Source: a virus. Taken from it: DNA of 64,000 nucleotides. The stretch covers positions 32,001 through 96,000 of IMG/VR virus record IMGVR_UViG_3300030329_005959; one strand, written 5' to 3'. The translations under genes were made by a program, and so were the position numbers. Position 1 is the first letter of the stretch. The number at the start of each line of letters is the position of its first letter. The notes beneath the pieces were generated by a model. The model searched no databases. It saw only the letters and a program-made list of their open reading frames with translations, and had not been told where the DNA came from. Shown piece after piece: positions 52,287 through 57,007 of the stretch.

Positions 52287-52480
52287 ATTGCGTTAACTAT
52301 AGAGTATATAACCGCAAAGGACAATACCACCACTGCTACAGCCCATCTCTAGAGGGAGCTTTGGATTGGGCAATCGACTGCGCTAAAGTAGTCCACGGAT
52401 CGGTGCGAGAAGTTTATCCCGATGGAGAAGAAAAAGAGATCTTTTCAGTAAAAGAAAAAGCCAGTGCTAAAGGCAATTAA
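52283..52480 (+). CDS. Hypothetical protein
   Basis: 65-aa ORF, ATGA-coupled. Confidence 0.55.
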   Translation: MNCVNYRVYNRKGQYHHCYSPSLEGALDWAIDCAKVVHGSVREVYPDGEEKEIFSVKEKASAKGN

Positions 52481-52718
52481 ATCACTTATAAAATCTGTAG
52501 AGCTTTTTTTGACTTTAAAAAACAAAAAGTTCTATTATGACTTACACAAAGAACACAGAAAAACAGAAGATGAACTTATTAAAGAAATCGAAAAACTTAG
52601 GGATACTGGTGATAGCAATGACGCTTCCCGCGCTGACCTCTTGCGGAAACGGCTCCGTATGGAAAATGAGCAATTTGAACATTTATCAGCCTTCTACTCT
52701 AAGATTGAAGAAGAATAA
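52464..52718 (+). CDS. Coiled-coil protein, candidate i-spanin (Rz-like)
   Basis: Amphipathic N-terminus, charged helical body, overlapped by a lipoprotein gene. Confidence 0.45.
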   Translation: MLKAIKSLIKSVELFLTLKNKKFYYDLHKEHRKTEDELIKEIEKLRDTGDSNDASRADLLRKRLRMENEQFEHLSAFYSKIEEE

Positions 52719-52848
52719 CCCTGTTCATACCCAAGATGGCCTTTATACCCCTCAGACTGACGAAGTGTGGCACTCTGACGCTCGATATAGAGAACTAGAG
52801 AGAGAGGTTTACTACTTGCCACGGCATCAAATACTAGCTGACAAATAA
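52570..52848 (+). CDS. Lipoprotein, candidate o-spanin (Rz1-like)
   Basis: MNLLKKSKNLGILVIAMTLPALTS-C lipobox, +1 frame overlap with the upstream gene. Confidence 0.6.
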   Translation: MNLLKKSKNLGILVIAMTLPALTSCGNGSVWKMSNLNIYQPSTLRLKKNNPVHTQDGLYTPQTDEVWHSDARYRELEREVYYLPRHQILADK

Positions 52849-52897: not shown

Positions 52898-53587
52898 ATG
52901 AAGACACTACTGTTTAGTCTCGTAACACTGTTGGGCGTTACTCTTGGTAACGCAGGTCTTAGCGCTGTAGATCTTGCAGAAAACATTTCTGTGGACGCTA
53001 GCGTTTCTTACAGCAATCTTTCCACTAGTGGCGGCTTGGCTGTCAGGGAGGATTCTTTGGGTTACTCCGTGCTTCTTGGCACTTCGTTTGAAGGTGGGGT
53101 TGCTTCGGTCGGCGTTGATATCTACGATGCTGACGGAGGAACTGACACTGACCTTTCGATTTCTTGGGCGCGTCCAGTAACTATTCTGGGGCAATCTCTT
53201 GAAGCAGAGATTTATTTTCAGCAAATCGAATCTTCTTACGGAGGTTGGGAGGAAGCTGGTCTTGGTCTGACCTATTCTAATGAATGGGCAGATGTAACTG
53301 CTACTTTGTGGCATGAACTAGGGACCGATGCTTCTTATGGAGTTGAAATCACTGTTTCCCGTGACTTTACTGTTCCTGTAGAGAATCTTACCGTTAGTCC
53401 ATTCGTTGCTGTAAATATTGCTAACGATTATAATGCAGTAGAGGTGGGGGTTTCTGCTGATTATGATTTTGGTAACAATCTTTCTGTAGGTGCAAAAGTT
53501 TCTTATAACCACAATGATGTAGATGGATCTGCCTACTCCCTCGATAACGATTGGGTCGTAGGTGCAGGGTTTAACTACAAATTCTGA
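52898..53587 (+). CDS. Outer-membrane beta-barrel protein
   Basis: Sec signal peptide, alternating amphipathic strands, C-terminal GAGFNYKF. Confidence 0.85.
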   Translation: MKTLLFSLVTLLGVTLGNAGLSAVDLAENISVDASVSYSNLSTSGGLAVREDSLGYSVLLGTSFEGGVASVGVDIYDADGGTDTDLSISWARPVTILGQSLEAEIYFQQIESSYGGWEEAGLGLTYSNEWADVTATLWHELGTDASYGVEITVSRDFTVPVENLTVSPFVAVNIANDYNAVEVGVSADYDFGNNLSVGAKVSYNHNDVDGSAYSLDNDWVVGAGFNYKF

Positions 53588-53611: not shown

Positions 53612-53642
53612 AAAAGCCTCCCTTTTTTGGGAGGCTTTTTTT
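53612..53642 (+). terminator. Rho-independent terminator (possibly bidirectional)
   Basis: AAAAGCCTCCC-TTTTTT-GGGAGGCTTTTTTT. Confidence 0.9.
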
Positions 53643-53665: not shown

Positions 53666-53983
53666 ATGGAACCCGAAAAGTCTATTTTAAAGGAGTTTCT
53701 TAACGGCGGGTGGTTGGTCCCATTAGTGGGCGCTGCGGCGATGTTAGCTAGGCTTTTGTCGGGCAACAATGAACTGTCGTGTAAACAGCAATTAAAAAGA
53801 ATATTAACGGCAGCTATAGCTGCTGGTGTTGCTTGGTTTGTCTTAGAGCAAACTGATGTTTCGTCGTTAACCAAGGCTATTACATATGGCATTATCGGTG
53901 TTGTGAGCCCCGAAGTCATATCTGGTATAGTGCGACTAGGAGAAAAGTTCGCCAAGAACCCAGAAAAATTTATTAAAAAATGA
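53666..53983 (+). CDS. Holin (three transmembrane helices)
   Basis: Three hydrophobic segments, basic C-terminus, upstream of endolysin. Confidence 0.7.
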   Translation: MEPEKSILKEFLNGGWLVPLVGAAAMLARLLSGNNELSCKQQLKRILTAAIAAGVAWFVLEQTDVSSLTKAITYGIIGVVSPEVISGIVRLGEKFAKNPEKFIKK

Positions 53984-54585
53984 GACCCAAGTTCATAGTC
54001 TATTGCCTCGCAGCTATTTGTTTAACTTTTGCTTTTAAAGGTTTGCTTCTCACTGAAGATATTGACGAAACTCTAAAGGAAAACGCTCGCCAGTCTGAGT
54101 CCTCTATTATGGAAATAGGAATGTGCTTTGATTGGTATGGAGTTATTATAGTAGATTCTGTGGTTAAAACATCTAACGGTGTTATCACACCAGCAGAAAT
54201 GGTGGAGGTTTTGGAAGAAGAGAGTGCCTATAAAGATGAGTATTTAGAAGGATACAAAAAAGATATCACTCCTCAAGAGGTGGAGTTCGCTGAATTTGTT
54301 TTCGAACAAGAAAAAAAAATAAGCGTTTATGTAGAAAGGCTTATTGCTTGGGGAAAGGGTAACGATATAGACAGTATCCGAGCTTCTATTCCTGTTATGT
54401 ATGAAATGACTGACCCCACAATTGAGGCCATTAACAACATAATGGACACAAAAATGTATTACAATGAGGAACAGTCAGCAATTCTTCACGGAAAAATAAA
54501 ACTTTACTCTGACTTTATGATTTTAGCGGTTGTTCTATCGGTTGTAATGTCAGTGTGTGCGTCACTTAGTAGGAGGTGTAGATGA
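53980..54585 (+). CDS. Two-TM membrane protein with periplasmic four-helix-bundle chemoreceptor-type sensor domain (4HB_MCP-like)
   Basis: TM-(D.Y.V.IVD...K...G..T..E, T..E, MY...DP...AI..I)-TM; no cytoplasmic signalling domain. Confidence 0.65.
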   Translation: MRPKFIVYCLAAICLTFAFKGLLLTEDIDETLKENARQSESSIMEIGMCFDWYGVIIVDSVVKTSNGVITPAEMVEVLEEESAYKDEYLEGYKKDITPQEVEFAEFVFEQEKKISVYVERLIAWGKGNDIDSIRASIPVMYEMTDPTIEAINNIMDTKMYYNEEQSAILHGKIKLYSDFMILAVVLSVVMSVCASLSRRCR

Positions 54586-55202
54586 ATTTTAAAGGTAAAA
54601 AAGAAGTAGTCAAAGCAGTCCAAAAGCTTTTGGGTGTTTCTTCTGACGGGGCAGATGGCCCTGTGACATGGAATGCTATCTTAGCTAAACTCTCCACAAA
54701 GGAAACTACAGCGCCTAAGGGGACCATTCCTGAAAAAATGGTTTCATTAGCAAGGGAAGAAATAGGAGTATCCGAAGTGGATGGCAGTAATTGTGGACCT
54801 AGAGTGGATGAATACAAAGCGGCTACATGGCTGGACGCTGATAAGGGTTGGCCTTGGTGTGCTGCCTTTATTTGTTGGTTAGTCAGGGAAGCTATGGAGG
54901 GAGAGGCCGTATCGTTTAAACGCCCTAGAACGGCGGGTGCATGGGATTTTGAAAACTGGGCTAAACAAGAATCAAATAGAGGTGTAGAATTGCGTAAGCC
55001 TACAAACGAAGATATTAAAGCTGGTGATATTGTTGTGTTTACATTCTCTCATATTGGTATCGCCGTAGCTGACGTAGACTCAAGCGGTTACGTTAAAACT
55101 ATTGAAGGTAATACCAATGGTGCTGGTAGCCGAGAGGGTGGCTCAGTCTTGGAAAAAAATAGGCACGTTTCTAAGATCAGAAGTAGGATAAGAATTCTGT
55201 AG
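54582..55202 (+). CDS. Endolysin: peptidoglycan-binding motif + CHAP amidase
   Basis: VQKLLGV..DG..GP.T, PWCAAF, HIGI, TIEGNT. Confidence 0.9.
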   Translation: MNFKGKKEVVKAVQKLLGVSSDGADGPVTWNAILAKLSTKETTAPKGTIPEKMVSLAREEIGVSEVDGSNCGPRVDEYKAATWLDADKGWPWCAAFICWLVREAMEGEAVSFKRPRTAGAWDFENWAKQESNRGVELRKPTNEDIKAGDIVVFTFSHIGIAVADVDSSGYVKTIEGNTNGAGSREGGSVLEKNRHVSKIRSRIRIL

Positions 55203-56818: not shown

Positions 56819-57007
56819 ATGGATGTCATTTTACAATTATTTCAGGATAACCCTTGGTTTGGCGTGGTAGCAGCTGGTATTGCCTTTGCTTCTGCTATTA
56901 CTGCTGCTACTCCTACCCCTAAAAAGGGTAGCTTTTGGGCTAAAGTTTATGGGATCATCGACTGGGCTGCTCTGAACATCGGGAAAGCCAAAGATAAGGG
57001 AGAATAA
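56819..57007 (+). CDS. Small membrane protein (holin-like)
   Basis: One TM, ASAI.A.TPTPK...ALNIGKAK. Confidence 0.6.
   Translation: MDVILQLFQDNPWFGVVAAGIAFASAITAATPTPKKGSFWAKVYGIIDWAALNIGKAKDKGE

Follow-up and report, generated by a model that had tools for sequence, protein, structure and literature searches.

A chemoreceptor-type sensor protein without output domain encoded directly behind a predicted holin in an uncultured marine phage and its relatives

Introduction

The timing of lysis sets the burst size of a phage and is one of a small number of phage decisions for which a response to external conditions is known. To our knowledge, molecular examples of environment-responsive lysis timing come almost entirely from T-even phages. 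A stretch of 64,000 nucleotides from an uncultured marine phage (positions 32,001 to 96,000 of IMG/VR record IMGVR_UViG_3300030329_005959; hereafter the window) raises the question whether other phages have found a route of their own. It encodes a protein that a sequence-only reading had described as a chemoreceptor ligand-binding domain placed between holin and endolysin, and many relatives share this sensor gene directly behind a predicted holin. A chemoreceptor-type sensor that lacks its signalling part and stands behind a holin gene suggests that lysis timing may be tied to a signal in the envelope. In the literature searched, the coverage of which excludes most subscription journals, we found no description of a chemoreceptor-type sensor in a phage lysis cassette. 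Here, we asked what this protein is, how firmly it is linked to the holin-like gene and which functions its family would allow.

Results

Three overlapping genes in a lysis region

The locus consists of three consecutive open reading frames on the plus strand (Table 1). The sensor gene was claimed to overlap both neighbours by ATGA, and indeed this tetranucleotide is found at 53980-53983, shared with the holin-like gene, and at 54582-54585, shared with the endolysin gene. The peptide strings quoted in the sequence-only reading are present in the 201-aa product.

Table 1. Features of the lysis region in window coordinates
Feature	Position	Strand	Basis or detail
Candidate overlapped spanin pair	52464..52848	+	84-aa helical charged protein (52464-52718) and 92-aa lipoprotein (52570-52848)
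MipA/OmpV-family outer-membrane beta-barrel with signal peptide	52898..53587	+	Pfam MipA E 1.2e-5, 26.1 bits (cut-off 24.2)
Terminator-like GC-rich hairpin, bidirectional, T-runs on both strands	53612..53639		11-pair stem, 6 GC pairs
Holin-like protein, 105 aa, LydA-like (holin superfamily III) below threshold	53666..53983	+	Pfam PF16083, PHROG
Predicted output-less 4HB (chemoreceptor-type) sensor protein, 201 aa	53980..54585	+	ORF, AlphaFold2, profile and structural matches
Predicted TM1, residues about 5-25	53992..54054	+	Hydropathy, family conservation
Predicted periplasmic four-helix bundle, residues about 26-177	54055..54510	+	AlphaFold2, structural matches, hhalign, dN/dS
Predicted TM2 (residues about 178-196) and 5-residue basic cytoplasmic tail	54511..54582	+	Hydropathy, AlphaFold2
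CHAP-domain endolysin, 206 aa, without signal or SAR sequence	54582..55202	+	Pfam, PHROG, hydropathy

The endolysin call was upheld by Pfam CHAP (E 7.6e-9, above threshold) and by a PHROG endolysin family (E 1.7e-15). Hydropathy analysis revealed no hydrophobic N-terminus in this protein, and a CHAP endolysin without signal or SAR sequence needs a hole-forming holin. Upstream of the three genes, the lipoprotein gene of the candidate spanin pair lies out of frame with its partner and encodes an LTSC lipobox. Both genes of the pair are kept in 66-67 close loci and in the distant locus L011. The outer-membrane barrel gene is found upstream of the holin-like gene in 77 related loci, and its assignment to the MipA/OmpV family points to a diderm host. 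When 185,579 species genomes were scanned with the profile of the holin, the sole match was a 1.8-kb contig binned to an Acidimicrobiaceae MAG, which is no reliable clue to the host. The hairpin in front of the cassette terminates the barrel gene, and the holin-like gene starts 27 nt further on. Further small membrane proteins are encoded nearby, for example at 56819-57007.

The holin-like gene

The first gene encodes a protein for which two to three membrane helices are predicted and which ends in a basic tail. Its size, its membrane helices, its tail and the gene for a signal-less CHAP endolysin two genes downstream, reached via overlaps, are those of the holin class. Pfam LydA holin (PF16083) was matched at E 0.026 by the window protein and at 1e-5 to 4.5e-3 by four homologues, with scores of 15.1 to 26 bits that all lie under the cut-off of 28.4 bits. 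In each of the four homologues this family scored highest, and in the window protein it ranked second after SLATT_1. PHROG holin 6384 was matched at E 3e-3 by the window protein and at 3e-6 by its homologue in L002. Some database homologues carry a precomputed PF16083 match, and holin profiles came first for every family homologue tested. An hhalign comparison of the family with P1 LydA alone was weak (9.7% probability), and the AlphaFold2 model of the protein was poor (pLDDT 55). The holin assignment, for which sub-threshold profiles, small size, membrane helices and adjacency to an endolysin in one clade only can be named, is thus weaker than the endolysin assignment.

The holin-like gene and the sensor gene form a conserved unit

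Linkage to the holin in other phages had been proposed as a check of the sequence-only reading, and we found it conserved at every locus that was long enough, down to about 20% identity. In a first set of 95 viral loci with the holin-like gene, the sensor gene lies directly 3' of it in 89, 86 of which have the 4-bp overlap; the other six loci end within 600 nt. The idea of a sensor wired between holin and endolysin therefore stands for the holin and the sensor, and falls for the endolysin as a third member throughout the family. A CHAP gene behind the sensor gene is confined to the clade of the window, where holin-like, sensor and CHAP genes are joined by overlaps in about 67 loci. The pair is also kept, without a CHAP gene behind it, in L002/L008/L010, L011, L012/L013, L016 and L108, the sensors of which are 18-32% identical. 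In five lineages its neighbours are structural genes, tRNA genes or others unrelated to lysis, and no endolysin gene is adjacent.

The coupling of sensor and holin-like gene is present in hundreds of contigs of uncultured aquatic phages. Searches by tblastn with the sensor, a distant relative and the holin-like protein against 50,697 phage records gave no match, so no cultured phage carries the pair among these records.

Topology and fold of the sensor protein

The sensor protein was described as a helical periplasmic domain between two transmembrane helices, ending right after the second. This topology was borne out, with a domain of 150 residues and a tail of 5 residues, 3 of them basic, beyond TM2. 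Kyte-Doolittle windows of 19 residues exceed 1.6 only at the ends of the protein, at about residues 5-25 and 178-196, and basic residues are found at both ends. The N-terminus (MRPK) is predicted to lie in the cytoplasm. AlphaFold2 modelled the protein with a mean pLDDT of 84.5 and helices at residues 3-65, 71-93, 98-126, 130-135 and 137-196, limits which imply that TM1 and TM2 run on into the bundle's first and last helices. One helix face of TM1 (L10, I13, F17, G21) is conserved throughout the family. The absence of a HAMP or signalling domain also holds family-wide, as no member extends more than 41 residues beyond TM2. The sensor protein thus lacks the HAMP and PF00015 signalling domains of the MCP class.

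A divergent branch of the 4HB_MCP superfamily

The likeness to 4HB_MCP sensor domains, put forward in the sequence-only reading, is supported by profile matches to MCPs, by hhalign and by structural matches. A search of 1.84 billion representatives with a profile built from close homologues matched proteins of 362-541 aa over query positions 12-197 (E 8e-6 to 1.4e-4). Pfam identified these as MCPs with 4HB_MCP_1, HAMP and MCPsignal domains, 4HB_MCP_1 being found at E 1e-10 to 5e-24, and the matched N-terminal region is the one covered by Pfam 4HB_MCP_1/TarH. An hhalign comparison of 26 diverse family members with five MCPs, which were drawn from the profile's own matches but classified independently by Pfam, gave a probability of 98.9% (E 1.4e-17) over 171 columns. 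In this alignment the motifs FDWY..VD..VK..HG, the E at position 100 and MY..TDP...IN are in register with the MCPs. Identity to the nearest MCPs found is only about 19%. Within the family, the alignment of diverse members contains no segment with enough conservation to scan for loci.

A direct match to PF12729 or TarH by Pfam's own models was not reached, and the window protein had no match at E up to 1. Searches of Pfam, PHROGs and PDB sequences with the sensor protein or the close-family profile returned nothing meaningful. When single members were searched, 4HB_MCP_1 was the Pfam family most often matched (3 of 26, best E 0.005, under the 27-bit cut-off), and among named ESM Atlas clusters those of 4HB_MCP_1 and TarH lie nearest. 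Since no member-family threshold of Pfam is reached, the protein represents a divergent branch of the clan and falls outside PF12729 (4HB_MCP_1) and PF02203 (TarH).

The best structural match by VIA-align was the Vc1313 ligand-binding domain (8bsa; Z 14.2, rmsd 2.2 A, 154 of 158 residues); further matches were 4k0d (Z 13.3), 9kup (Z 13.3 to 13.6) and NarQ (6xyn, Z 12.8), although helical bundles without relationship may likewise score about 13-14. The ten best matches are without exception bacterial 4HB sensor domains, from chemoreceptors or kinases, and the NarQ sensor is among them together with its TM helices. Foldseek gave weak E-values (0.11 at best in PDB and 0.0095 in BFVD), with 4HB sensors as top names. 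As a Z of about 14 is also what unrelated helical bundles typically reach at best, the fold match proves little alone and the weight lies on the sequence profiles. Taken together, profiles and model support the view that the sensor protein belongs to a divergent, output-less branch of the 4HB_MCP superfamily.

Selection on the sensor domain

Throughout the family, the most conserved segments of the bundle are residues 46-67 in distal helix 1 and 137-163 in distal helix 4. Conserved positions in these distal motifs are D51, W52, Y53, K63, G67, Y141, P146 and N152. For the 67 distinct genes of the window clade, pooled dN/dS was ~0.06 over the periplasmic domain, 0.014 at residues 46-67, 0.023 at residues 138-163, 0.11 for TM1 and 0.17 for TM2 with the tail, values which are rough because dS is near saturation. 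Purifying selection is strongest where helices 1 and 4 are farthest from the membrane, at positions where Tar-type receptors bind ligand. The sensor homologues form 202 clusters at 90% identity, and this breadth together with the low dN/dS means that the gene is not a chance reading frame. A decayed remnant of a captured host gene was considered and rejected, given purifying selection and the breadth of the family.

Hairpin-only variants occupy the sensor slot

In 24 loci among L110-L136 the slot of the sensor holds a gene of 49-51 aa with two TM helices, the same overlap and the same downstream gene. Three loci of this range (L116, L128 and L132) kept the full-length sensor gene. The hairpin proteins and their full-length sister proteins match in TM2 up to the IRE that both have at the C-terminus (five of six comparisons with 0 of 2000 shuffles). 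For TM1 of the hairpin, a relation to the full-length TM1 could not be demonstrated (p 0.014 to 0.68). DNA alignment of full-length and hairpin-only loci, the flanks of which are conserved, revealed no clean deletion junction. The hairpin gene has a dN/dS of about 0.28. These variants show that the core role can do without the bundle and that the membrane part, whatever its task, needs no sensing for it.

Discussion

A proposed holin partner acting through the membrane

We propose, with about an even chance of being right, that the sensor protein is a partner of the holin that acts through the membrane and has the bundle as its periplasmic input. The protein is predicted to sit in the inner membrane with both termini inside, TM1 leading into the periplasmic four-helix bundle and TM2 returning from it. 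It would descend from the sensor module of an MCP and would have lost everything beyond TM2. The LydA-like holin encoded immediately upstream would have it as its dedicated partner, and the protein would be made in a fixed proportion to this holin via translational coupling at the 4-bp overlap. Results of the analysis are the fold, homology and topology, the lack of an output domain, the conserved coupling to the holin-like gene, the peak of purifying selection at the distal bundle end and the natural variants cut down to a two-TM hairpin. We infer a contact with the holin, the sign of its effect, and the existence and nature of a signal. Both TM helices would probably touch holin helices, and this contact would alter when or whether the holin forms holes that admit the cytoplasmic CHAP endolysin to the wall. 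The role would be that of an antiholin-like or holin-modulating subunit. A ligand or partner protein at the conserved membrane-distal end could shift TM2 against TM1, as in chemoreceptors, and the shift of TM2 would then change the contact with the holin.

A narrower version of this proposal, which we hold only tentatively as a minority possibility, is that the chemoreceptor-derived sensor wired to the holin reads a specific envelope signal and advances or delays lysis. Such a signal could come from a small molecule or from a partner protein in the periplasm or outer membrane, for example the lipoprotein encoded nearby. The sensor QseE, which reads QseG, is a model for a lipoprotein partner as signal.

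Alternative functions

It is also conceivable, although unlikely, that nothing is sensed and that the protein is a structural co-holin, an obligatory or auxiliary subunit of the hole complex as in two-component holins, in which the bundle only dimerises or orients the helices. Four-helix bundles can act as mere dimerisation scaffolds, and 4HB sensors such as Tar and related receptors are constitutive dimers, which fits this reading. So do the strict translational coupling to the holin-like gene, the holin-like basic cytoplasmic tails in most lineages and the hairpin-only variants that retain the slot. However, conservation peaks at distal helices 1 and 4 and not at TM1 or at TM2 with its tail, and the same distal motifs are conserved in related MCPs and would not be needed by a scaffold.

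Less probable still is a membrane function unrelated to lysis timing, for example a superinfection-exclusion, injection-blocking or other envelope module, with the true holin elsewhere. The holin assignment is sub-threshold, other small membrane proteins are encoded near the pair, and in five lineages the pair stands beside non-lysis genes; as most lineages have no adjacent endolysin, the pair could serve such another function. Against this, the pair of the window clade is joined by overlaps to a cytoplasmic CHAP endolysin that requires a holin, in about 67 loci, and every tested family homologue matches holin profiles first. Moreover, a holin apart from the endolysin is also found in T4 and P1 (PMC9025707).

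That the protein is a decoy, a truncated receptor that pairs with a host chemoreceptor or joins its arrays and so disables chemotaxis during infection, appears very unlikely. Its relationship to MCP sensor modules is genuine and extends to TM1 and TM2, and mixed dimers with truncated receptors would be possible in principle, but a decoy would not be expected to show strict translational coupling to a holin-like gene in every lineage, the low identity of the sensor protein to the nearest MCPs places it far from any plausible host receptor, and hairpin-only variants retain the slot. A spanin, either unimolecular with an outer-membrane lipoprotein end and a C-terminal inner-membrane helix or an i-spanin, is hardly credible and was rejected: the lysis cassette location, the C-terminal TM helix and an N-terminal hydrophobic segment with two cysteines invariant in the close clade would suit it, but there is no [LVI][ASTVI][GAS]C lipobox (Y and I, not G, A or S, precede C9 and C14), the cysteines are not conserved in the wider family, TM1 is predicted to be continuous with bundle helix 1, the periplasmic part forms a compact bundle, about 60 A in length, and leads back to the inner membrane, and a separate candidate pair has a canonical LTSC lipobox.

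If the holin is regulated by its sensor-like partner, phages would have a second, unrelated and probably common route for sensing the envelope before lysis. A piston-type transmembrane sensor could then act on a membrane partner without a cytoplasmic output domain. Should lysis in addition be advanced or delayed by a specific signal, it would be the first known case in which a sensory module of bacteria has been put to use in directly regulating a pore-forming protein, and this use would be widespread in aquatic phages. The system is small, with three genes and, within the sensor protein, a soluble domain of 150 residues, and the sensor-less variants are a natural control.

Comparison with known systems

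The sensor protein shares TM1, an up-down-up-down bundle and TM2 with known 4HB sensor modules of chemoreceptors and sensor kinases (4HB_MCP_1, TarH and CHASE3; 8bsa, MCP2201 6its, Tar 1lih and NarQ 5iji). Likewise common to both are helices continuous from membrane to bundle and conserved motifs at distal helices 1 and 4. In contrast to these modules, the protein is phage-encoded, has no HAMP, kinase or MCP signalling domain and stays below threshold for every Pfam member family. A cellular precedent for a sensor of this kind is GlnX of Corynebacterium and Mycobacterium, a 4HB sensor that lacks a classical output domain and relays its signal by contact with another protein (PMC9769921). Both have a periplasmic 4HB part, and the sensor protein, too, would work by contact with a partner, but GlnX has four TM helices and two bundles, and its partner is a cytoplasmic kinase and not a membrane pore former.

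Among phage systems, the gene order resembles that of P1, where lydA is followed by lydB with the same 4-bp overlap; LydB antagonises LydA, and its loss leads to premature lysis (PMC9025707). The LydA family is the best Pfam match in the homologues of the holin-like protein, a partner gene follows with an equal start/stop overlap, and the endolysin may be unlinked, as in lineages here. Homology of the sensor protein to LydB was rejected (hhalign probability 0.15%), and LydB is not a two-TM four-helix bundle. In T4 lysis inhibition, the periplasmic antiholin RI holds the holin T (PMC8385771, PMC11413866). As a working analogy, a periplasmic domain could in both cases link holin triggering to an extracytoplasmic signal, while RI has no sequence or fold relation to the sensor protein. 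RI, which is small and secreted, binds a large periplasmic domain of the holin itself, whereas the holin described here has no such domain, so its contact with the sensor would be made within the membrane.

Probable holin, endolysin and neighbouring genes

The source IMG/VR virus record comprises 104 kb, and the window corresponds to its bases 32001-96000. Tail-tip genes of lambda-like type (J-like, L-like and I-like matches) are present in the window. After a strong hairpin terminator, three plus-strand genes linked in series by ATGA overlaps encode a probable holin, a membrane protein termed here the sensor protein, and a CHAP endolysin. By hydropathy, the endolysin lacks a hydrophobic N-terminus and therefore needs a hole-forming holin. 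The holin assignment is based on profile matches. The Pfam LydA holin family (PF16083) was the strongest match in four homologues tested and the second in the window protein (E 1e-5 to 0.026, all below the curated cut-off), and several PHROG holin families were matched by the window holin and its homologues (best E 3e-6).

Coordinates of the genes and elements described (L numbers denote related viral loci)
Feature	Position	Strand	Description
Candidate spanin pair	52464-52848	+	overlapped, Rz/Rz1-type
First spanin candidate	52464-52718	+	84 aa, helical, charged
Second spanin candidate	52570-52848	+	92-aa lipoprotein, out of frame; signal peptide, canonical LTSC lipobox
MipA/OmpV-family outer-membrane beta-barrel	52898-53587	+	signal peptide, C-terminal Phe
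Hairpin terminator, strong	53612-53639		5' of three-gene chain
Probable holin	53666-53983	+	105 aa; small membrane protein, basic tail
Sensor protein	53980-54585	+	201 aa; middle gene, ATGA overlaps
CHAP endolysin	54582-55202	+	206 aa; Pfam E 7.6e-9 (above threshold), PHROG endolysin E 1.7e-15
Single-TM protein	56819-57007	+	62 aa; phrog_9685; conserved TPTPK...ALNIGKAKDKG tail
Homologue of single-TM protein	L011:2886-3083
Equivalents of spanin candidates	L011:1824-2081, L011:1897-2181		lipobox ISSC
Hairpin gene examples	L127:3318-3473, L111:3318-3473, L118:3318-3467
Region after sensor gene	L002:4671-5321, L002:5268-5963
Protein upstream of holin homologue	L109:2561-2992		143 aa

Both spanin candidates were conserved in 66-67 close loci, with equivalents in the distant L011. 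Membrane anchoring of the 84-aa protein is uncertain, its N-terminus being weakly hydrophobic. The sensor protein itself was rejected as a spanin: it has no lipobox, its chain returns to the inner membrane, and a separate candidate pair exists. The MipA barrel gene ends at the hairpin, which is terminator-like in both directions; it lies upstream of the holin in 77 related loci, and its homologues were all metagenomic or viral proteins. Together, barrel and lipoprotein point to a diderm host. The 62-aa single-TM protein, with a homologue near the holin in L011, may be a further small late-region envelope protein. In the distant L109 lineage, the gene of a 143-aa protein overlaps the following holin homologue stop to start. 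This protein has a signal-like N-terminus and matches PHROG families of unknown function (E 7e-5) and, faintly, a 3D domain (Pfam E 0.089); its sequence could be that of an exported enzyme acting on the wall. Three tRNA genes (Gly-TCC, Asn-GTT, Trp-CCA) come after the sensor gene in the L002 lineage, and behind them lies a 231-aa ORF that matches the Pfam AMOP domain (E 1.2e-7) and whose listed start overlaps tRNA-Trp. To our knowledge, the AMOP domain is not usual in phages.

Relationship of the sensor protein to chemoreceptor sensors

The sensor protein sequence alone gave no match in Pfam, PHROG or PDB. A profile of close homologues, run against 1.84 billion representatives without a word index, recovered 50 proteins, the majority 195-257 aa long and built like the sensor protein. 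Five differ in build. Four of these (362-541 aa) were matched over the N-terminal part and all carry 4HB_MCP_1, a four-helix-bundle (4HB) sensor domain; TarH, HAMP and MCPsignal are spread among them, HAMP scoring below threshold in one and missing from another. The fifth (243 aa, matched over residues 14-195) has 4HB_MCP_1 and TarH only. Two of their clusters are named as Erwinia and Oxalicibacterium methyl-accepting chemotaxis proteins. By hhalign, 26 diverse family members (18-32% identical to the window protein, save one close homologue at 80%) aligned with those five at a probability of 98.9% (E 1.4e-17); the alignment spans 171 columns (residues 18-190) and places the conserved motifs of the two groups in register. 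Scanned singly, 3 of the 26 matched 4HB_MCP_1 sub-threshold and no other family was matched more often; the nearest named ESM Atlas clusters were 4HB_MCP_1 and TarH. The 4HB_MCP resemblance suggested in the sequence-only reading is thus real homology. Its description of a sensor without HAMP or signalling domain also held, as the protein ends 5 residues past TM2 and every family member lacks an output domain. By sequence comparison, the family is a divergent 4HB branch outside Pfam's curated models.

Hydrophobic segments are confined to residues ~5-25 and 178-196 (hydropathy), and the protein is acidic in the middle and basic at both ends. The AlphaFold2 model (24 homologues, mean pLDDT 84.5) has helices at 3-65, 71-93, 98-126, 130-135 and 137-196, a predicted four-helix bundle with the helix at each terminus continuing into the membrane. 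Foldseek returned NarQ, Tar, Adeh_2942, Vc1313 and MCP2201 as top names with weak E-values, and the best viral match carries a 4HB MCP domain annotation. Six 4HB sensor domains ranked first among 48,161 representative chains in VIA-align (top match Vc1313-LBD: Z 14.2, rmsd 2.2 A, 154/158 residues). In a further structural comparison sensors made up the 10 best matches of 10, including a NarQ fragment with membrane helices. Because helical bundles attain Z ~14 through arrangement alone, we do not rest the case for 4HB kinship on the fold. Five cysteines (C9, C14, C49, C193 and C200; two in TM1 and one each in helix 1, TM2 and the tail) are invariant in 24 aligned close-clade sequences and not conserved across the wider family.

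Conservation of the membrane-distal bundle

Among 67 distinct window-clade genes, pooled dN/dS was 0.06 for the bundle, 0.11 for TM1, 0.17 for TM2 plus tail, 0.014 for residues 46-67 and 0.023 for residues 138-163, all rough values with dS near saturation. The last two segments, which lie in helices 1 and 4 within the half far from the membrane, are also best conserved family-wide. This region is the ligand site of Tar-type receptors (aspartate receptor). In TM1, one face is conserved across the family (L10, I13, F17, G21). By analogy, the distal conservation favours a binding function rather than a mere scaffold. A pure co-holin or scaffold would agree with the coupling to the holin and the basic tails, but is at odds with the distal conservation, and we consider it unlikely.

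Linkage of probable holin and sensor gene

The sensor gene lies directly 3' of a holin homologue in 89 of 95 viral loci, with a 4-bp overlap in 86 of these; the remaining 6 loci end within 600 nt of the holin. Six more locus groups (L002 and L010; L008; L011; L012/L013; L016; L108) keep holin then sensor at identities of ~20-30% (sensor) and 37-62% (holin). Synteny with holins in other phages, proposed earlier as a check, was thus confirmed. The suggested position between holin and endolysin applies to ~67 window-clade loci, the only ones where CHAP comes next; in most other lineages the pair has no adjacent endolysin, and in the six groups it adjoins structural, tRNA or other non-lysis genes. 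Because these groups keep holin and sensor without CHAP, the conserved unit is the pair, not the triplet. Homology to 4HB sensors and linkage to the holin are well supported, and we hold both with high confidence. Neither gene was found in cultured phages (50,697-record collection), and no published account of a chemoreceptor-type sensor plus holin module was found in the literature covered, which leaves out most subscription journals. The weak holin assignment, and the many lineages (most of them) without adjacent endolysin, would suit an envelope module with a non-lysis role; this fits poorly with the overlap-fused endolysin of the window clade and seems quite improbable.

Hairpin variants

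At 24 of the loci numbered L110-L136, the sensor's slot is taken by a short gene (49-51 codons) for two membrane helices with a short loop between them; the downstream gene and the 4-bp overlap with the holin are both unchanged. L116, L128 and L132, in the same range, have a full-length gene. Compared with the L012 holin, that of the hairpin loci shows ~95-100% identity. Between hairpin and full-length loci the flanking DNA could be aligned, but not the interior, and the family HMM gave only ~5 bits on the hairpin. Its second helix and C-terminus match the full-length sister proteins (L116, L128), with 11 of 15 final residues identical in one example, including the terminal IRE; none of 2000 shuffles reached the score in 5 of 6 comparisons (sixth, p 0.002). 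The first helix showed no demonstrable relation to the full-length first helix. Hairpin genes are variable with the reading frame kept (pooled dN/dS ~0.28). From these alignments, we read the hairpins as proteins in which the bundle was lost or replaced and the membrane hairpin retained. The core function next to the holin would then lie with the membrane part, the bundle being an add-on input. A chemoreceptor decoy, which would leave both the strict coupling to the holin and the hairpin variants unexplained, is very hard to credit.

Proposed role and known systems

We propose that translational coupling would yield sensor protein in proportion to holin, and that the protein would lie in the inner membrane, probably dimeric as its relatives are, with TM1 and TM2 contacting the holin. 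Occupation of the distal site would move TM2 against TM1 and alter this contact, so that the hole for the cytoplasmic CHAP endolysin forms earlier or later. A role as holin partner, taking regulator and co-holin versions together, is likely. Signal-dependent control of lysis is more tentative, ranging from doubtful to an even chance with the specificity of the claim. The solved 4HB sensors TorS-TorT, QseE-QseG and LytS-XylFII, all among the structural matches of the sensor protein, read a partner protein and not a small molecule; by analogy, a protein might therefore serve as input here too.

Parts of this scheme have precedents. In phage P1, lydB directly follows lydA, and loss of lydB causes premature lysis (PMC9025707). 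The lydA/lydB genes share the 4-bp overlap of the holin/sensor pair. LydB has no homology to the sensor protein. In T4, the periplasmic antiholin RI controls holin T (PMC8385771, PMC11413866). GlnX is a 4HB sensor without output domain that signals via protein contacts (PMC9769921).
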